Below are positions 681 through 9,792 of a stretch of DNA of 64,000 bases, piece by piece. The first letter of the stretch is position 1; the number at the start of each line of letters is the position of its first letter. This stretch comes from Spirochaetia bacterium (GTDB taxonomy: Bacteria > Spirochaetota > Spirochaetia > SZUA-6 > Bin103). The stretch spans positions 96,001 through 160,000 of the forward strand of contig CBDAOI010000003.1 in the NCBI GenBank assembly GCA_965198005.1, given 5' to 3'. A program made the position numbers and the translations under genes. The notes under the pieces were generated by a model. It ran no database searches. It worked only from the letters and a program-made list of their open reading frames with translations, and had not been told where the DNA came from.

Positions 681-2809
681 CCTCCGACCGGCGCGCGATC
701 GCCGACACGCTCCAGGGGCTCAGCACGCGCTCCGACCCGGGCGAGGAGTATTCGCCGCTGCCCGACGGGTACGCACCCGGCCGCACCCGCTTCATCATCG
801 TCACCGGCAGCGTGATCAGCGGTCTGGGCAAGGGGGTGTTCTCGGCCGGTCTGGCGTCGCTGCTGGAGGGCCGCGGGTATCGCACCAACCTGATCAAGAT
901 GGACGGCTACTTCAATGAAGATGCCGGTACTCTGAACCCGTACCGTCACGGGGAGGTATTCGTGCTCGCCGACGGCACCGAGTGCGACATGGACATCGGC
1001 ACCTACGAACGGTTCGTGGACAAGGATTTCTCCCAGCACAACATCTTCACCAACGGCCGGCTGGCGCGCCGCATCAGCGAGCTAGAGCGCGGCGGCCGCT
1101 TCTCCGGCTCGGACGTGCAGTTCTATCCGCACGTGACCGGCGAGGTGATCCGCTTCGTGCGCGAGTCGGCGCTGGCGTACCGGGCCGACATCACGCTGGT
1201 GGAGATCGGCGGCACGGTGGGTGACGACGAGGTGCGGCCCTACGTCTCGGCGGTGAGCGACCTCGCCTACCAGGAGGGCGAGGGCAACGTGTTCTTCGTC
1301 AATCTGGCGTGGATCATCGAGGCCTCCCATCTCAACGAGCAGAAGAGCAAGGCGGCGCAGCACGGCACCCAGTTGCTGATGCAGATGGGGATCAAGCCGC
1401 AGATGCTGGTGTGCCGTTGCGAGAATCCGCTGGAGGGCGCCGTGCGGCGCAAGCTCGCGCAGCGCCTGCGGCTGCCGCAGCGCAACGTGATCGACCTGCA
1501 CAATCACGACTCGATCTACGCGGTGCCGGGGCATCTGGCGGCGCAGCAGGTGGACGGCATCGTGCTGGACTACTTCCGCCTGCCGGCGCGGCCGCACCGT
1601 CCCGAGTTCCGGTTCGACGGCTACCTGGGCCGGCTGGCGCGGGCGCGCGCGCCGGTGGTGGTGGGGCTCGCCGGCAAGTACATGGGGCCGCGCGACACCT
1701 ATGCCAGCATCCACGCGGCGCTGGAGCACGCGGGTTGCGCGTGCGGGGCGAAGGTGGAGGTGGTGGACGTGCCCACCGACGCCATCGAGCAGGCCGGCGG
1801 CCGCGACCGGCGGGTGGCGAGTGCCGCGGACTGCCTGGCCGAGCTGGACGGCATCATCGTGCCGGGCGGCTTCGGGCGGCGCGGCTGGGAGGGCAAGATC
1901 GCCTGCATCACGCACGCCCGCACCACCGGGCTGCCGCTGCTCGGCATCTGCTACGGGTTCCAGGCGGCGATGGTGGAGTACGCGCGCGAGTGCTGCGACC
2001 TCGGCGGCGCCAACACCACCGAGAACGAGGCGGGCGCCGCGGCGCCGGTGGTGTGCCTGCTGCCCGAGCAGTACGAGATCGAGGGAGTCGGGGGGTCGAT
2101 GCGCCTCGGCCAACAGACCGTCACGCTGCTGGCGGGATCGCGGGTGGCCGCCCTCTACGGGGCTACCCGGGCGGGTGAGCGGTTCCGCCATCGGTACGAG
2201 TTCAATCCGCTGTACCGCAGTATCTTCGAGGACGGCGGCGTGGTGTTCTCGGGCTGGGCGGCCGGGCAGCCGATCATGCAGGTGGCCGAGCTGCCGGAGC
2301 ATCCGTTCTTCATCGGCGTGCAGTTCCATCCGGAGTTCACCAGCCGGCCGGCGCGGCCGAGTCCACTGTTCCACGGCTTCGTGGCCGCCTGCCTGGAGCA
2401 CCGGCGCGCGGGTGCGGGCGGCGCGGGTACGGGCCGTGCGGGCGCGCGCGGCGCGGCGGCGGTACGGACAGCGGGCGGTGCGGACGGCGGCGACGGTGCG
2501 GGCGCGGCTGCGGCACGGACGGCGGCCGGCGCAAGCGCGCGGGCGGGTGCCGGTGCCGGCCGTGCGGGTACGGACGGTGCAGGCGGCGGCGGTGCCGGCG
2601 CGGGCGCGGCGAGCGGCCGGCACCCGCCGGGTCGGGGGCGGGCGAGCGCCCACCAGGGAAGCGCCGAAGGAAGCGCCGGCGGGGGAAGCGCCCACCGGGG
2701 AAGTGACGGCGCCGGCGCGCTCGGGACGGTGAGCGCCGGCGACGGTGGCGGGGACGGCGGCGGCGCCACGCCGGGGAGCGCGGTGGCCACGGCCGCGGGG
2801 GAGCCGTAG
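677..2809 (+). CDS. pyrG: CTP synthase with a ~135-aa Gly/Ala-rich C-terminal tail
   Basis: GSVISGLGKG, DAGTLNPYRHGEVFV, VPGGFG, GICYG (catalytic Cys), RHRYE and QFHPEF motifs. Confidence 0.96.
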   Translation: MTSDRRAIADTLQGLSTRSDPGEEYSPLPDGYAPGRTRFIIVTGSVISGLGKGVFSAGLASLLEGRGYRTNLIKMDGYFNEDAGTLNPYRHGEVFVLADGTECDMDIGTYERFVDKDFSQHNIFTNGRLARRISELERGGRFSGSDVQFYPHVTGEVIRFVRESALAYRADITLVEIGGTVGDDEVRPYVSAVSDLAYQEGEGNVFFVNLAWIIEASHLNEQKSKAAQHGTQLLMQMGIKPQMLVCRCENPLEGAVRRKLAQRLRLPQRNVIDLHNHDSIYAVPGHLAAQQVDGIVLDYFRLPARPHRPEFRFDGYLGRLARARAPVVVGLAGKYMGPRDTYASIHAALEHAGCACGAKVEVVDVPTDAIEQAGGRDRRVASAADCLAELDGIIVPGGFGRRGWEGKIACITHARTTGLPLLGICYGFQAAMVEYARECCDLGGANTTENEAGAAAPVVCLLPEQYEIEGVGGSMRLGQQTVTLLAGSRVAALYGATRAGERFRHRYEFNPLYRSIFEDGGVVFSGWAAGQPIMQVAELPEHPFFIGVQFHPEFTSRPARPSPLFHGFVAACLEHRRAGAGGAGTGRAGARGAAAVRTAGGADGGDGAGAAAARTAAGASARAGAGAGRAGTDGAGGGGAGAGAASGRHPPGRGRASAHQGSAEGSAGGGSAHRGSDGAGALGTVSAGDGGGDGGGATPGSAVATAAGEP

Positions 2810-4089
2810 TGCCGGCAACCGCGGTGGTGGGCGCCAACTGGGGCGACGAGGGCAAGGGCAAGCTGTGCGACTACCTGGCGGAGTCCTCCGATATCGTGGT
2901 CCGCTTTCAGGGCGGCAGCAACGCCGGTCATACGGTCATCAACCAGTACGGCAAGTTCGCCCTGCACCTGGTGCCGTGCGGGGTGTTTCACACCCATACC
3001 ACCAATCTGCTCGGCGCGGGCGTGGGCGTGAATCCGGCCCTGCTGCTGGCGGAGCTGGCCGAGCTGCAGGCGCGCGGCGTACCCAACGCGCGGGTGCTGA
3101 TCTCCGACCGGGCGCAGGTGGTGCTGCCGTTTCACGTCGAGCTGGACCGCCTGGAGGAGGAACGCCGCGGTGCCGCCAGGTTCGGCTCGACCCAGTCGGG
3201 CATGGCGCCGTTCTACTCCGACAAGTACCTGAAGGTGGGCATTCAGGTGTGCGAGCTGTTCGACGGCGCGCGCCTGCGCGTGCGGCTGGAGCCGTCGCTG
3301 GAGCGCACCAACGTGCTGCGCGAGCACTTCTACGGGGCGGCGCCGTTGCCGCTGGAGCCTCTGGTCGAGGAGCTGGCGGGACTCGGCGCCCGGATCCGCC
3401 CGCTGGTGGTGGACGCCGGCGCCCTGCTGCGCGACGCGCTCGACGCCGGCAAGCACGTTCTGCTGGAAGGGCAGCTCGGCGCGTTGCGCGACCCCGACCA
3501 CGGCATCTACCCCTTCACCACCTCCTCCTCGCCGCTGGCGGGGTTCGCCACGGTCGGCGCCGGCGTCCCCGCGCATGCCATCGACCGGGTGGTGGCCACG
3601 GTCAAGGCCTACTCCTCCTGCGTCGGCGCCGGCCCCTTCACCACCGAGCTGACCGGCGCCTGCGGCGACGAGTTGCGCGCGCGCGGCGGCGATGCCGGCG
3701 AGTATGGCGCCACCACCGGCCGCCCGCGCCGGGTCGGCTGGTTCGACACCGTGGCCACCCGCTACGGCTGCGCCGTCCAGGGCGCCACCGAGCTGGCGGT
3801 GACCCTGCTGGACGTGCTCGGCTACCTGGACGCCATTCCGGTCTGCACCGCCTACGAGGTCGACGGCCGCCAGCTACGGGAGTTCCCGACCACGGCGGCG
3901 CTGGAGCGGGCGCGCCCGGTATACGAGACCCTGCCCGGCTGGAACTGCGACCTCAGCCACGCCCGCCGGTTCGCCGAGCTGCCGTCCCAGGCCCGCGCCT
4001 ACGTGCGCACCATCGAAGCCGCCGCCGCCGTCCCCGTACGCTGGATCTCGGTCGGCCCCCGCCGCGAGCAGTTGATCAGGGTCGAGTGA
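2809..4089 (+). CDS. purA: adenylosuccinate synthetase
   Basis: NWGDEGKGK, GGSNAGHT, EGQLG, YPFTTSS and EYGATTGRPRRVGWFD motifs. Confidence 0.97.
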   Translation: MPATAVVGANWGDEGKGKLCDYLAESSDIVVRFQGGSNAGHTVINQYGKFALHLVPCGVFHTHTTNLLGAGVGVNPALLLAELAELQARGVPNARVLISDRAQVVLPFHVELDRLEEERRGAARFGSTQSGMAPFYSDKYLKVGIQVCELFDGARLRVRLEPSLERTNVLREHFYGAAPLPLEPLVEELAGLGARIRPLVVDAGALLRDALDAGKHVLLEGQLGALRDPDHGIYPFTTSSSPLAGFATVGAGVPAHAIDRVVATVKAYSSCVGAGPFTTELTGACGDELRARGGDAGEYGATTGRPRRVGWFDTVATRYGCAVQGATELAVTLLDVLGYLDAIPVCTAYEVDGRQLREFPTTAALERARPVYETLPGWNCDLSHARRFAELPSQARAYVRTIEAAAAVPVRWISVGPRREQLIRVE

Positions 4090-4129
4090 GGGAGGGGTTT
4101 CGTACCGAACTTCCGAGCGAGCGCACTAC

Positions 4130-5584
4130 CTATGAGACGTGAAGCGGGAAACGAACCCGGTCACGTCCTGTCTCAGCCAGCTCAAACGGCATGCGTAGTT
4201 TCGCCCCTTCCGGCGGTTGCAGATAGTCATACATCGTCGAAAGACCGAGCACGGATTCCCCGTCCTTGTTCGCACGCCAAGTTCCTGCCAGCGGGTAGCA
4301 TCGAAAACACGGCACCATGGATTCTCGGTACCGCATCGTGGTCTCCTTTGCAATCAATATGTCAGCGGGCTCCTGTAACTGAAGGAGATATGGGGAATGA
4401 GTGGCCAGAATGAGCTGACGCATCACGTTTCCATTTCCAATTTGGCTCCCGGTGTCCACGGCCAAGTCCCTCAGAAGCCCCTCCATGGCCGGCAACCGCT
4501 CAGGATGGATGCCGTTCTCCGGTTCTTCGATACAGAGTACCCCCCCGGATTCGGGGTCTTCCGCCAGAATGGCTAGGGCAAGAAAGCGCAGTGTGCCGTC
4601 CGATACAGCACTCGCGGAAAAGTGCTGACCGCCCGTCTCCTCAATCGACAGGGTGAGCAGTTCACGAACGTCATCACGGACCACGTCGACACAGGTTACG
4701 GGAACGAGTTCAGCCAGCCTTGCCGATATGCGCGCGGCGACATCACCATTTTCCCCATCGAACCGCTTCAATCGATTGAGCGCTCCGGCAAGGTGGGCAC
4801 CGTTGTCGGACACGAAAGCGGGGTCTCGTGCGACACGATCCGGACGCCGCAGGGCGCTCGGCTCCAGGGCGAGTAGTCTCCATTTCTGCATTTCGCGGCG
4901 TGCAGCCAGGATCGTTGGTGTCGCTATCGTGCTTGTGGTGCTGACAATCGTTCTGGGCGCCGTGCGGGCTGGGGCTCTCTGCCCTGGTCCCCTCGACCCG
5001 CCGTCTTGATGAACGATAATCTCGGGCGTGTCGTCTTCAGTGATCTCGGTGGAAATATAGCCGGTCTTGGCGAACCGCCGGTTCTTCACGGCAGAGTCTC
5101 GGAATCTCGACTTGGAATGAGGAAAGCGCAGCTTCTTGACGGCATCTCCCTGTCGAATCAACTGAAGCGATTCCGAGTGCAGTTCCAGATCGGAGCCTAG
5201 GCCGTCCGCCCTGGAGTCTCCACCCCTGAGACCGAGTTCTATTTCGTAGCGTAAGAAAGTTGATGTAGCCTGACCCGGGCGTCCGAAGTCATCATTCACT
5301 CGCTGGTCCACCAACATTTCGGCTGCAAGCCGGAACGAATCCTTGTGCAGGTTGTTGCCGCGAAAGAACAGGTCGTCCGGGCGAGCCGTGTTGCCCGTTC
5401 TAGAGCGTACCTGCAGCGCAGCTTCGAGGATGGAGTGATCCGCCAGCAGGGAAAGAAAGTGAATTGCATCGAAAATGTTCGACTTGCCGATTCCGTTCGG
5501 GCCCGCGATACACGTGTACGGACCGAAATCGACCGTAAAGTCGATGAGGTTCTTGAATCCGTCCGCTTCCAGGCGAGTCAGCAT
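4130..5584 (-). CDS. ABC/SMC-like ATPase (AAA_21/AAA_15 type), lower-GC cargo gene
   Basis: Walker A GPNGIGKS, signature SDGTLRFL, Walker B/D-loop IEEPENGIHP and H-loop ATHSP. Confidence 0.85.
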   Translation of the reverse strand: MLTRLEADGFKNLIDFTVDFGPYTCIAGPNGIGKSNIFDAIHFLSLLADHSILEAALQVRSRTGNTARPDDLFFRGNNLHKDSFRLAAEMLVDQRVNDDFGRPGQATSTFLRYEIELGLRGGDSRADGLGSDLELHSESLQLIRQGDAVKKLRFPHSKSRFRDSAVKNRRFAKTGYISTEITEDDTPEIIVHQDGGSRGPGQRAPARTAPRTIVSTTSTIATPTILAARREMQKWRLLALEPSALRRPDRVARDPAFVSDNGAHLAGALNRLKRFDGENGDVAARISARLAELVPVTCVDVVRDDVRELLTLSIEETGGQHFSASAVSDGTLRFLALAILAEDPESGGVLCIEEPENGIHPERLPAMEGLLRDLAVDTGSQIGNGNVMRQLILATHSPYLLQLQEPADILIAKETTMRYRESMVPCFRCYPLAGTWRANKDGESVLGLSTMYDYLQPPEGAKLRMPFELAETGRDRVRFPLHVS

Positions 5585-5650
5585 GTAGGTGCGGTAGCCT
5601 CCGTAGTCGTTAGTGTAGCAGCAATACTATGCACTATCAGGAAACTTGTC

Positions 5651-5771
5651 TCAAAGCGGTGCGCGGGTGGCCCAGGCCCGCGCCTACGTGCCCATCGAAA
5701 CCGCCGCCGGCGTCCCGGTACGGTGGAGCTCGGTCGGCCCCCGCCGCGAGCAGTTGATCCGCATCGACTGA
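5651..5771. repeat. fused degenerate copies of the nudC 3' end (5651-5678) and the purA 3' end (5671-5771)
   Basis: 5651-5678 matches 7034-7061, including the stop position. 5671-5771 matches 3986-4089, including TGA. The two copies overlap at CCCAGGCC. Confidence 0.92.
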
Positions 5772-5780
5772 CGTGCGGCG

Positions 5781-6886
5781 CTACCGGACGCGCGCGATGC
5801 CATGGTTCCTGATCTGGTGCTCAATCACCAGGGACGAGACGCCGAACTCGGTTCCCAACTCGTCAATATCATCCCCATCCACCACCCGTCTGCTTACTCG
5901 GCTCCGCAACCCCGAGGAAGGTGCGAGGAACTCGGCGGCAAAGGCACGATTGCGCTGTTGTCGTTCGGAATGAGCTCTGGTGAGCAACGTATCAGTGTCC
6001 GGTGACAACAGCACTTCAGACAGCGCCCGACAGAAGTGAAAGCGGCGGCGCTCGTCGCTGAGTTGGCGAAATGCAAATGCTGGAGTCCCGTGATCGTCGC
6101 GAGTAATGATCCCGTCCACCATGGCGGGCATACGGTCCGAGTCCAGCCGAGAGGTAGTCACTCTCTCAATCGACTCGGCATCCTCGCCAAGGGCCTCCGC
6201 TATCTCTGGCGTAGTCGGCAATGCAGCTCCGTCCAATCCCAAAAGCTCTCGCAGTTTCCGTGCACAATCGCACCCAAGCTCCCAGGGATGTGTCTCTGTG
6301 CCGATGTAAGGACGAACAGCATCGCCAAGAGACCGGAGCCGGTCCAGCGCAAGGCTATTGTCTCGCTTGGCGTTCGCGATGGTATGCACGACGGAGAACC
6401 AATCCTCGTAGGGACCGTCCGCTACGATCGCCGGCACTGCCTCGTCGAGCAAAGAACCCAGCTTCTCCGCGAGTTCAAGGATCCGACAGCGCATGTCTTG
6501 GTTCAGGGCATACGGATCCCACCCCAGGCCGGCCGCGGTTCTGCAGAACTGTAAATCTTCTTCATCGGCGCTCATAATGGCTTCCCACTCGCTTTGAAGA
6601 TACGTGTCGCGGACCTCCAGCGCTGTCAGTCGGCGCATCACCTGATCGACGAGGCCGGCGCACGTCTCGCGGAACGCGTCGCTGTCTACCCAGGCTATTC
6701 CCTGGTCGAGGAATTCGACGTTGCTCCACTTGAGAAGTCACGAACTGTCTTCGCGCGCCCGTCCAACACGCGGGTAATGATGGAGTCTCCGGCCCGGATG
6801 CACAAAGAGGCCCAGGTGGCGGAGAATTCCGGACCGCTGATCCCTTCCGCATCAACCCAGTCGATCTCGAAACTGAACTCAGGCAT
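5781..6886 (-). pseudogene. ImmA/IrrE (Peptidase_M78)-like protein lacking HExxH, broken by a frameshift or internal deletion near 6733
   Basis: N-terminal MPEFSFEIDWV... frame stops at 6695. A second frame (KWSNVEFLDQG...) continues to RRRFHFCRAL and NRAFAAEFLAP, which are M78-like motifs. Confidence 0.62.
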
Positions 6887-7033
6887 AGAACTCCTCGATG
6901 CCGGCCGGCCACTCGTCTTCGTAGGCAATGACACGTCGGCGGGGCCGCTTGCGTCTGCTGGCACGCATACTCGTCTATGGGACCATACCATGCGACCGGT
7001 TGCAACGGGTAGAACGGGCAGAGTTGCTTATCG

Positions 7034-7963
7034 TCAGCACGGTGCGCGGGTGGCCCAGGCCTTGATCAGGTGGTGGGCGATGGCGATGGGGCCGGGGAGG
7101 GTGAGGCGCGGATTGTTGCCGTCGAGCGCCAGCAGCACCTCGCGGCGGTCGAACCAGCGGACGTCGGCCATCTCCTCGTGGTCCATGCGGATGGTGGTGG
7201 TGGCCGCGTCGGCCAGGCAGCCGATCATGAGCGAGGATGGGAACGGCCACGGCTGGGAGGAGTGGTAGCGCACGTTGCGCACGCGCACGCCGGCCTCTTC
7301 CATCACCTCGCGCGCGACCGCTTCCTCGATTGCCTCGCCCTGGTCCACGAAGCCGGCCAGGGCGGAGTAGATCTTGAGCCGCGACAGCCGGCCGCGGGTC
7401 TGCCCGAGCAGGCAGCGGTCGCGCGCGACGTCGGCCACCACCGTGATCACGACCGGATCGGTGCGCGGGAAGTGCTGCATGCCGCAGGCCGGGCAACGGC
7501 GCACCTGACCGCCGCGCTGCTTGACCGTGGGCTGCCCGCAGCCCGAGCAGAAACCGTACCGGTTGTGCCAGTCGAGGTGCGCTCGCGCCTGGGCCAGGAT
7601 GCCGGTTTCGGGGAGCGCCAGCAGGCTTCCGGCGGTGCGGCAGTCCGTAAACTGCCAGCCGCGCTCGTCGCGGATCCGGTCGAGCGCCGCCTGACAACCG
7701 GACAGATCGACCGCGAAGTGGGCCCGCCCGTCCATTACCCCCAGCAACAGCGGTTCCGCCGCCGGCGCCAGCGGCCGCACCCAGGCGGCGGCGAGCCAGC
7801 CGAGCGCCGCCTGCGCGCCGTCGGTCAGCAGCACCTCCAGGTCGCGGAACGGCAGCCACCGGCTGTCGGGCGCGCGGGCCGCGGCCTCCAGCCAGGCTTC
7901 GTCACGCCGCGCGCGGTCGCCGCGGTCGAGGGGATTGGCAGCAAAGGTGTGTGTAGGGCTCAC
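7034..7963 (-). CDS. nudC: NADH pyrophosphatase (Nudix)
   Basis: Zn ribbon FCSGCG...CPAC, FPRTDPVVI, Nudix box AGFVDQGEAIEEAVAREVMEEAG and SQPWPFPSSLM. Confidence 0.94.
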   Translation of the reverse strand: MSPTHTFAANPLDRGDRARRDEAWLEAAARAPDSRWLPFRDLEVLLTDGAQAALGWLAAAWVRPLAPAAEPLLLGVMDGRAHFAVDLSGCQAALDRIRDERGWQFTDCRTAGSLLALPETGILAQARAHLDWHNRYGFCSGCGQPTVKQRGGQVRRCPACGMQHFPRTDPVVITVVADVARDRCLLGQTRGRLSRLKIYSALAGFVDQGEAIEEAVAREVMEEAGVRVRNVRYHSSQPWPFPSSLMIGCLADAATTTIRMDHEEMADVRWFDRREVLLALDGNNPRLTLPGPIAIAHHLIKAWATRAPC

Positions 7964-8170
7964 CCGTCTCCCACCCAAGTGACGCACAAGCTTGAGTAGT
8001 GTAGCTTGCGCCCCGGTGCGCCCGTATCAACAAGGCATGAAGTAATCTGCGGCGATCTCCATCCCTTTCCGCCGTCTCCGGAAACGCTTCGGGGCCGAGT
8101 ATTACAAGGGCAAGCAGGGTTGTACATACTACGATCTGAAAACGGCTCTCTTAGTCCTTCGGCTTAATGG

Positions 8171-8644
8171 CTAAGGCATGACGGCGGCCCTGTCGACGGA
8201 GTCGCCCTCATTTGTTGGGGAGTCAACTGGAACACAAGCATCACCACGGATTGCGGCGGACCGTATTCGATATCCGACGGTCGCTTCTACGAGCCGAGCC
8301 TTCAGGTCTCTCGATGACGCTTCTTTCGGCACCGGTATGTCGATCACCCTTGCGAAACGGGTAAGGTCCGTCTTTGATTGCAGCATACCGTCGATCAATT
8401 CTACAGCGCGTTCTCTCGTATTAGCCTTTCCCAATGCGTAATTAAGTTGGCTCATTTCTTCATTAGAACAACGATTTGGTTTTTCGCGTCTCTTTGTCTG
8501 TTTATCGGCAGGACGAATCTCTATCTTCAAATCCCCATCCAAGATGCGCTCAACGTCGTCGTCGTTCATCGCTTGAATCTGCTTTGCGAAATGATGCAAC
8601 AGCGCTACAACTTGTTGCTTTACAGATGTCCGTTTGGTCGTCAT
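8171..8644 (-). CDS. hypothetical protein, low-GC islet
   Basis: 157-aa ORF with protein-like composition. Its ATG overlaps the stop of an upstream broken ORF (ATGA at 8641-8644). Confidence 0.65.
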   Translation of the reverse strand: MTTKRTSVKQQVVALLHHFAKQIQAMNDDDVERILDGDLKIEIRPADKQTKRREKPNRCSNEEMSQLNYALGKANTRERAVELIDGMLQSKTDLTRFARVIDIPVPKEASSRDLKARLVEATVGYRIRSAAIRGDACVPVDSPTNEGDSVDRAAVMP

Positions 8645-8958
8645 GCGAGCCTCCGCTCAAACTCGTCTGCGAGTATCTCAATTTCCTGCACCACGATGTT
8701 GTGTGTGAAGTTCGCCACCTGTCGTACGGGGACGCAGCAGCTTTGCAACGGACTGTGGTTGGAATGCCAGGGATACCGCTACTACAGGCATGTGGCCCCT
8801 CGTACTGATCTCGTAGGCAAGAGCGTATACTTGACCTCGGGGTACGGTCAAACGGGCTCACGGCTGGTTGTGGCCACCTGTCGATGTCGGAAGGGTCTTG
8901 CCCCTCCTGTCCCCGTCGGCCGCACTTCGTTCTGTCCCGCGAGGCGCAGATGGGAGAT

Positions 8959-9792
8959 TCATTCGGCGATCCCCTGTGCGCGAAGGAAGGTGAGCACCGC
9001 CGGCCACGGGCGCGGGCAGTCGTTGTGGCCGCACGGCAGGCGCACGGGGGCCGTGCCGGCGGCGCGCGCCAGTTTCTCGGCATGCGCAAACGGAATCACG
9101 CGGTCGCGCGCGCCGTGCAGCACCAGCGTGGGGGCGGCGCCGGAGGCCACGGCCGGGAGATTGTCGAACGGATCGAGCACCCAGGCGCGCGGCAGGAACC
9201 AGGGCATGAGGTCGGCGACGCTGGTGAACGTCGACTCCAGCACCAGCGCCGCCAGCGGCCGCTGCACGGCGAGCGCGCACGCGGCGCCGCCCCCGAGCGA
9301 CCGGCCGTAGGCGACGATGCGCGCCGGATCGACGTCCGGGTGGCGGCGGGCGATGTCGTAGGCGGCGATCACGGTGGCGGTGATCGACTGCCGGCTGGGT
9401 CTGCCGCTGGAGCGGCCGTAGCCGGGGTATTCGACCAGCAGCACGCCGAATCCGGCCGCGGTCATGGGCGCGAACGGCGCCACCCAGTGGTCGATCAGCT
9501 CGCCGTTGCCGTGCAGGTAGATGATGAGCGGAAAGGGAGTGGCCGCCGGCGTGCCGGCGGCGGCGGCCGTCGTGGGCTGCGCGGGCGCCGCCGGCCGCAG
9601 CAGCCACGCCTCGACCGCGTCCTTGGGGCCGAGCCGGAGCCGCTCGCTGCCAGCGGGCAGGTGCGGCGGGCTCGCCGGCAGTGGCGGGCGCGGGTACATG
9701 AACCGCCGCTGCAGCCCGATCGCCGCGCCGACCACGAGCACGACCGCGAGCAGGGCGGCGAGCGGAATGGTGAGGCCGGGGGTCAGGCGCAC
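8959..9792 (-). CDS. alpha/beta hydrolase (ABHD/Bem46-like) with N-terminal membrane anchor
   Basis: YLHGNGE, EYPGYG, GRSLGG nucleophile elbow, HGARDRVIP and GHND motifs. Confidence 0.9.
   Translation of the reverse strand: MRLTPGLTIPLAALLAVVLVVGAAIGLQRRFMYPRPPLPASPPHLPAGSERLRLGPKDAVEAWLLRPAAPAQPTTAAAAGTPAATPFPLIIYLHGNGELIDHWVAPFAPMTAAGFGVLLVEYPGYGRSSGRPSRQSITATVIAAYDIARRHPDVDPARIVAYGRSLGGGAACALAVQRPLAALVLESTFTSVADLMPWFLPRAWVLDPFDNLPAVASGAAPTLVLHGARDRVIPFAHAEKLARAAGTAPVRLPCGHNDCPRPWPAVLTFLRAQGIAE

Follow-up and report, generated by a model that had tools for sequence, protein, structure and literature searches.

We analyzed a 64,000-nt stretch of the genome of an uncultured Spirochaetia bacterium (assembly GCA_965198005.1, contig CBDAOI010000003.1, positions 96,001–160,000; hereafter the window, from whose first base coordinates are counted unless a contig or locus is named). 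The assembly comprises four contigs totaling 4.89 Mb at 65.8% G+C. Between purA and nudC, two units of accessory cargo lie in tandem, separated by a short block in which copies of the 3′ ends of both flanking genes are fused at an 8-nt microhomology. An earlier note, made from the bare sequence of this region, had given the order as purA, an oppositely oriented ATPase gene, the fused nudC and purA end copies, an ImmA-like gene and nudC, and this layout proved correct on inspection of open reading frames (ORFs), Pfam matches and repeats. The parts are as follows, with a prime marking a copied gene tail.

2809–4089, plus strand: purA (adenylosuccinate synthetase), intact; PF00709, E value 4.6e-155
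3986–4089, plus strand: resident copy of the purA-tail repeat, the last 104 nt of purA, from repeat comparison
4090–4141: spacer of 52 nt from the purA stop to the edge of unit 1, with no similarity to the flank of the purA copy
4130–5584, minus strand: unit 1 ATPase, 484 aa, ABC-type and HEC-01A-like, intact but orphaned; AAA_21 (6.1e-27) and AAA_15 (1.1e-15)
4142–4162, minus strand: remnant of the HEC-01B/TOPRIM partner gene, about 7 codons (..DRVRFPL), from alignment to homologous loci
5585–5650: spacer of 66 nt upstream of the ATPase, with one sigma-70-like consensus match (minus strand, 5654–5626)
5651–5678, minus strand: nudC′, a 5′-truncated copy of the nudC 3′ end, 28 nt, of which 22 nt are exact (5657–5678)
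5671–5678: CCCAGGCC, the 8-nt microhomology where purA′ and nudC′ overlap, present in both parent genes
5671–5771, plus strand: purA′, a 5′-truncated copy of the purA 3′ end, 101 nt, with its own TGA and with nine substitutions and a 3-nt deletion relative to the resident gene
5781–6886, minus strand: relic of an ImmA/IrrE-like (M78) gene in unit 2, from homologue mapping and Peptidase_M78
5781–6641, minus strand: the ImmA-like ORF within unit 2; Peptidase_M78, E value 3.8e-06
6879–6968, minus strand: relic of a small gene lying upstream in the ImmA-like operon, homologue residues 1–15 and 119–131 in frame
6969–7033: spacer of 65 nt from unit 2 to the nudC stop, from the sequence
7034–7987, minus strand: nudC (NADH pyrophosphatase-type Nudix), intact; NUDIX, NUDIX-like and Zn_ribbon_NUD
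7040–7061, minus strand: resident copy of the nudC 22-mer, an exact repeat of 5657–5678

The G+C content is 72.7% in the junction block (5651–5771, 121 nt), 72.4% in purA and 72.6% in nudC, and 57.8% and 60.1% in the two cargo units.

The fused gene tails

The end of purA (3986–4089) aligns to 5671–5771 with 92 matches, nine mismatches and one 3-nt gap, and TGA closes both copies. On the nudC side, 22 nt recur without difference (7040–7061 and 5657–5678), and the stop triplet, TCA as the reverse complement, stands in register in both places (5651–5653 and 7034–7036). The last sense codon differs at all three bases (..AWATRAPL* in nudC′ and ..AWATRAPC* in the resident gene). Both copies are joined through CCCAGGCC (5671–5678), an octamer common to the two parent genes that is flanked by T and C in purA and by G and T in nudC, so that the flanking bases differ on both sides. 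A chance origin is excluded: no other repeat family of the same 5.3 kb comes near a 101-nt match of about 91% or an exact 22-mer, both placed directly against a stop codon, the other families being GC-rich, 14–42 nt long and 64–94% identical. The fusion of both flanking gene ends described in the earlier note is real, therefore, and the copies do retain their stops as it had stated. All purA′ changes that it had listed (CCC>CCG, CGC>CGG, AGG>CGC, V>I, E>D and the 3-nt gap) were found, together with three further amino-acid changes, A>T, A>G and I>S. Promoter and terminator scans remained at chance level, with two sigma-70-like sites against 1.0 ± 1.0 expected, and Rfam returned no match over 3800–9000.

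Two features of the data could suggest that the assembler had joined two co-occurring strains: the assembly is of metagenome type (four contigs, 90% complete, 3.3% contamination), and the same samples contain many related organisms, with hundreds of contigs at 85–95% likeness. We examined the junction in independent Logan contigs from short reads (k = 31), which span it in runs X2, X3 and X7 from two studies, one of them possibly the source of the assembly. Contigs of X2 and X3 cover 4508–5758 with no difference, while X7 offers overlapping contigs at 4508–5100 and 5078–5758, the second of which crosses the junction with one difference. Additional contigs cover 5732–7074 (X3) and 5732–6935 (X7); run X1 yielded fragments only. 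Within each of the three runs, depth over the ATPase, the ImmA unit and the flanks is similar (14–17, 11–20 and 8–21). With no more than 8 nt in common at the join, the parents offer an overlap that no assembler could bridge, and both cargo genes also appear to coexist in a sister assembly. The latter (a contig of 1,028,537 bases) has purA with one changed residue, an identical ATPase and a 99% identical truncated ImmA-like ORF, and is known from exact and cluster protein look-ups (P0122, P0241 and P0245), not from its DNA arrangement. The chimera of two strains that the earlier note had raised as a concern is thus not what these data contain, since contigs cross the junction at even, single-copy depth, and an artefact is hardly credible. 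Compared across the two assemblies, the relic of the ImmA-like gene shows 3 changed residues in 285, purA 1 in 426 and the ATPase none in 484, a contrast that would fit relaxed constraint on the relic, although the numbers are very small.

Cargo of the two units and the interval in relatives

The unit 1 ATPase matches PADLOC HEC-01A (PDLC04184) over residues 1–406 with an E value of 4.3e-95, and homologues 72–73% identical to it occur in metagenome-assembled genomes of Gammaproteobacteria and Vicinamibacterales. HEC-01 is a candidate defense system composed of an ABC ATPase and a TOPRIM protein (Payne et al., bioRxiv 10.1101/2024.01.29.577857); in the one published test available, it failed to protect against the phages used. 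A partner gene of about 210 aa directly follows the ATPase in 19 of 20 loci of other genomes (ATPase identity at least 45%), two of the 19 being partial. Three such partners were scanned, all matching PADLOC HEC-01B (1e-25 to 7e-22) and one also matching DUF4276 weakly. Unit 1 therefore resembles HEC-01 in that its ATPase matches HEC-01A and has homologues that precede HEC-01B, and differs from it in that the B gene is deleted. Homology to HEC-01 loci begins at about 4142, and all that is left of the adjacent TOPRIM partner is some seven codons that the ATPase ORF reads in frame at its end, with about 200 codons gone.

Unit 2 has fared no better. Residues 1–51 of an ImmA-like homologue (436–448 aa) map to 6886–6734 and residues 120–435 to 6737–5787 in another frame, so that 68 codons are deleted out of frame. 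Family members are mostly 430–468 aa long (119 other relatives among the matches listed), and a full-length protein with an N-terminal and an M78 domain is precluded here by the deletion and its frame shift. A gene of 122–133 aa, without Pfam or PADLOC match, precedes the ImmA-like gene in four homologous loci (L052, L053, L055 and L056); its counterpart in the window has lost its interior in frame and retains only residues 1–15 and 119–131 (6968–6879). Judged by their gene content, both cargo units are decayed relics, not working defense. The earlier description of a stacking of defense-type genes was accordingly overstated: what is stacked, and only physically, is an orphaned ATPase and a doubly deleted operon.

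As far as the searched genomes tell, the adjacency of purA and nudC is special to this lineage. In congeners, whose PurA proteins are 80–81% identical in eight genomes and 68% in G002, purA is followed by genes of native composition and then by aroA, 2.1–7.2 kb away. nudC was absent downstream of purA in all eight regions from seven congeners over the 12–13 kb examined; it lies elsewhere in nine congeners, at a distance of at least 0.8 Mb from purA in the five with both genes on one contig. Across 59 metagenome loci with a nudC relative, at best 75% identical, neither purA nor the cargo occurs within 9 kb. One congener, G001, carries two near-identical purA copies in opposite orientation (C1:291782–293056, minus strand, and 6993945–6995219, plus strand); on its single contig of 7.0 Mb, the first lies about 0.29 Mb after the start and the second about 12 kb before the end, an arrangement that may reflect either a large inverted duplication or the assembly.

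The window (C3:96001–160000) contains none of the 46 tyrosine-recombinase matches (PF00589) of the genome nor its one serine-recombinase match (PF00239), in a search that did not include DDE transposases, and the nearest recombinase match on the same contig is more than 370 kb away. In this respect the earlier label 'integrase-free' holds. Many of the 46 tyrosine-recombinase matches stand in groups of three.

Two neighboring features are recorded here as well. A third low-G+C insert (52.6%, down to 46%) occupies window positions 8000–8850 between nudC and an alpha/beta-hydrolase gene; its ORF at 8171–8644 on the minus strand encodes a protein of 157 aa that has no Pfam or PADLOC match and recurs as an exact copy on a 1,069-base Joint Genome Institute (JGI) metagenome contig. 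Upstream of purA, the Pfam matches of the CTP synthase ORF (677–2809) end at residue 570 of 710, where the GATase domain gives way to a Gly/Ala-rich tail of about 140 residues; the DNA of this tail reaches 86% G+C, and the ORF ends exactly at the purA start codon.

Allelic origin of the copies and displaced tails elsewhere

purA′ is closer to the resident purA, with 92 of 101 aligned bases identical, than to the genes of seven congeners, with 74–84. Using these seven as outgroups, we polarized the nine purA′ substitutions. At five of seven polarizable sites (4028, 4035, 4078, 4080 and 4086), it is the resident gene that is derived, the copy having the outgroup state; changes derived in the copy are those at 4041 and 4046 (the latter I>S where I/V is invariant) and the 3-nt deletion, and two sites were ambiguous. 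The probability of at most two of seven changes being derived in the copy is 0.23 when both evolve at the same rate and 0.013 when the copy is assumed to evolve at three times the rate of the resident gene. A neutral copy would be expected to outpace its constrained parent in accumulating changes; here the reverse holds, which makes purA′ unlike a duplicate decaying in place. The nudC tail points in the same direction, as all three of its differences fall in one codon beside 22 identical bases. Both nudC′ and the resident nudC carry CGGTGCG (..RAP), in contrast to ..REQ in nine congeners; together with the closeness of purA′ to the resident gene, this indicates that the second version came from close kin. 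The allelic differences speak for added DNA from another genome, in small numbers. Among 5.8 billion proteins, the purA alleles nearest to such a donor were the organism's own protein, the one-residue sister variant and then a protein at 85% identity (P0123), none with the full purA′ C terminus; P0123, the nearest other purA found, shares the G and the terminal D of purA′.

As the earlier note had proposed, we scanned the genome for further copies of gene ends, with a noisy screen for gene tails repeated downstream within 20 kb. It proceeded from 904 local direct repeats to 72 matches, 48 of them listed, and after orientation filters to 26 rows, from which five loci were inspected. At least three further displaced tails emerged. 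Behind rtcB, a vapBC-like pair, consisting of a small ORF without Pfam family (L199:1887–2177) and a PIN-domain ORF, is followed by rtcB′ (70 nt, 94%; C2:682061–684211, L199 595–2717); the remnant keeps the Asp of the congeners where the working rtcB has a derived Ala, and its junction has a CACG repeat. An epimerase gene is followed by about 4.7 kb of cargo with STAND-like AAA_16/AAA_22 ORFs and then by epimerase′ (95 nt, 98%, with stop; C3:1049748–1055719, L198), which adjoins broken SDR fragments in the order of the intact SDR–epimerase pair. A glyoxalase-family gene is separated from its remnant (186 nt, 99%, own stop; C4:451476–461598, L200) by 9.5 kb with AAA-ATPase_like/PDDEXK_9 pairs, GNAT genes and SDRs. 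None of these three stretches contains a PF00589 or PF00239 match, and at none of the three remnants was a fused fragment of the opposite flank seen. The three remnants support, as far as their arrangement can tell, a recurrent one-ended additive process in this genome.

A further candidate (C3:212833) was rejected as a tail remnant, being two full-length paralogues. In another locus (C3:876695–883070, L197), a C-terminal fragment of a luciferase-like monooxygenase, 97% identical over the last 105 nt, lies 5.4 kb upstream of the full gene, a geometry unlike that of the other remnants; the intervening DNA holds MazF-like and Gp49/HTH toxin–antitoxin pairs as well as a Borrelia P13-like gene. 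Local repeats abound in the genome, the 904 direct-repeat pairs being 40–600 nt long and within 20 kb of each other, and its overall G+C content of 65.8%, compared to 72–75% in housekeeping genes, points to much accessory DNA.

Recombination routes and their meaning

At the joint, the end of one purA–nudC interval is fused to the start of another, the signature of a tandem addition of a second interval copy. Because tails of both flanking genes meet in it, the joint also shows that purA and nudC had the same order in the genome that supplied the added DNA. The cargo is unrelated, and so are the spacers right up to the stop codons, and what was joined was therefore two versions of the interval, not duplicates of one. 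We lean towards additive recombination between two close-kin purA–nudC intervals, through one homologous crossover and one illegitimate join at CCCAGGCC. In such a course, two close-kin versions would have existed, one with the HEC-01 remnant and the other with the ImmA-operon remnant, and DNA with one version would have entered a cell with the other. One end would have recombined homologously in the flanking purA or nudC, and the other end, inside the tail of the opposite gene, would have been joined illegitimately at CCCAGGCC, which purA and nudC share by chance. The incoming version would thereby have been added, not exchanged, with the old 3′ end displaced downstream and fused to the truncated tail of the other gene. 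The product would be symmetric, as an ATPase unit anchored in purA and an ImmA unit anchored in nudC would lead to the same arrangement. Either of the intact genes flanking the units could serve as the homologous anchor, and locating the crossover point would take a donor or recipient genome. We infer this order of events, along with a linear substrate and RecA dependence. The purA′/nudC′ block itself is a recombination scar without a function of its own.

Several observations weigh against this course of events. Neither DNA uptake by the organism nor a linear substrate has left a sign, and a circular intermediate would give the identical product. No haplotype with a single unit, either purA–ATPase–nudC or purA–ImmA–nudC, was seen in congeners or in the 59 metagenome loci, the sole sister assembly appears to carry both cargo genes, and we infer the two-haplotype premise from the scar alone. 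The polarization comprises seven sites, with outgroups about 20% diverged, and the TCA of nudC′ may be a coincidence; it also falls within a promoter-like hexamer. The earlier note had traced purA′ to a functional allele of a related lineage on the basis of codon-biased changes. Of that proposal, the close-kin allele is retained through the polarization, whereas the argument from codon bias is not: with three synonymous and six non-synonymous changes, the ratio of non-synonymous to synonymous rates (pN/pS) is 0.71 and does not differ from neutrality (P = 0.43).

The same note had suggested that a unit of purA end, cargo and nudC end circularized at the microhomology and recombined in. If closure at CCCAGGCC were followed by a single homologous crossover of the Campbell type, whether within the roughly 100 nt of the purA tail or the 22–28 nt of the nudC tail, exactly the observed structure would result. 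Direct repeats do flank the units: around unit 1 they comprise an exact stretch of 21 nt and about 100 nt at 91%, around unit 2 an exact stretch of 22 nt. The three other remnants are equally compatible with circles carrying a gene tail. Circularization is not needed, however, as the same product arises from a linear fragment through a homologous crossover at one end and an illegitimate one at the other, and a circle calls for two rare steps, microhomology closure and a crossover on 22–100 nt of imperfect homology, in place of one hybrid event. The remnants of rtcB, epimerase and glyoxalase lack a fused opposite-flank fragment, and no circle-junction, empty-site or single-unit joint is among those listed for four runs, although contigs cannot show absence. 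On balance, we consider a circle unlikely.

The remaining explanations, from tandem duplication through templated filler and a recombinase acting in trans to the assembly artefact weighed above, are progressively less likely in that order. In tandem-duplication joints at microhomologies, the end of a segment is fused to its start over a few shared bases, and the geometry here is the same; moreover, the region has other illegitimate deletions, namely the truncated B gene and two internal ones. An unequal illegitimate exchange at CCCAGGCC, with later replacement or deletion of cargo and drift, could thus be imagined. The units, however, are not copies of each other. They share only allelic gene tails and their spacers differ up to the stops, so that no fewer than three additional precise events would be needed; five derived changes fall in the resident purA tail, which is under constraint, against two and an indel in the supposedly neutral copy, and all three nudC′ differences lie within one codon, making a duplication in place improbable. 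During repair of a break or deletion between the two cargo units, a template-switching process resembling microhomology-mediated break-induced replication (MMBIR) could instead have copied 22 nt of the nudC tail and jumped at CCCAGGCC to the purA tail, as both templates lie within 1.7 kb of the junction and the switch point has microhomology. Such a filler would start out identical to the resident purA, so that the nine substitutions, five of them derived in the resident gene, would demand a later allele replacement, and neither the end of purA′ at its stop nor the nudC′ stop in register is predicted by template switching; we rate it as quite improbable. Integrase-borne islands duplicate the 3′ end of a tRNA or protein gene as att repeats, and successive insertions stack in tandem. 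A copy of the target-gene 3′ end beyond the insert is thus their classical mark, tandem stacking is present here too and the 46 tyrosine-recombinase matches could supply an enzyme in trans to non-autonomous elements using gene tails as att sites. Yet no recombinase was found in the window or at the three other remnant loci, the joint has both flanking tails, the repeats at the four target genes are unrelated in sequence and vary from 22 to 186 nt, no inverted-repeat core was seen and the cargo is decayed; elements of this kind are very improbable. The parts of a hotspot survey available to us (PMC10121019) contain nothing bearing on integrase-free hotspots.

The additive recombination that we favor has a counterpart in homology-facilitated illegitimate recombination (HFIR), for which PMC6382021, in the passages that treat it, describes joins at 3–10-bp microhomologies beside a homologous anchor, citing de Vries & Wackernagel 2002, Prudhomme et al. 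2002 and Meier & Wackernagel 2003. The purA–nudC joint is alike in its 8-nt illegitimate junction, with flanking bases that differ on both sides and without a site-specific recombinase, and on the favored reading would share the homologous anchor as well. It differs in that HFIR, as covered there, is a laboratory result in competent Acinetobacter, Streptococcus and Pseudomonas, whereas here it would be deduced from a natural scar in an uncultured lineage, and in that what was added is another version of the interval already present, leaving both gene tails fused at the joint. Arrays formed by 3′-end displacement at type VI secretion system (T6SS) effector–immunity, Rhs and contact-dependent inhibition (CDI) loci are treated by Kirchberger et al. 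2017 (PMC5361080), who cite Jackson et al. 2009. There, too, an incoming module with a conserved 5′ anchor pushes the old 3′ end and its companion downstream and the cargo is stacked, but the variable toxin 3′ ends are themselves the cargo, whereas here housekeeping tails of 28–186 nt accompany unrelated, decayed accessory genes. Kirchberger et al. put HFIR forward as the mechanism behind such arrays of orphaned 3′ regions at T6SS/Rhs loci.

As a natural recombination scar, the feature is clean and belongs to a known kind, but its form is unusually informative, with a joint that marks the crossover to within eight bases; it is not an active cassette system. Few examples of natural one-ended integration by homology plus microhomology exist outside polymorphic-toxin loci. 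At least four loci (purA/nudC, rtcB, epimerase and glyoxalase) fit a route of tail displacement, for which microhomology-closed circles are a possible vehicle. That accessory cassettes of this lineage (defense, toxin–antitoxin and the like) habitually travel with a replacement tail of a conserved gene, insert by homology at that tail without a recombinase and displace the old tail and older cargo downstream is a speculative extension that we hold to be doubtful; if true, tail displacement would be an integrase-free additive route that stacks cargo behind housekeeping genes and then buries it. For the mining of defense islands, the locus counsels caution, as both of its 'defense-type' genes are relics. 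Together with the three further tails, the joint suggests that small accessory islands arise behind housekeeping genes through additive recombination with close kin, needing neither replacement nor integrases or other enzymes of mobile elements, and that such islands are then left to decay.

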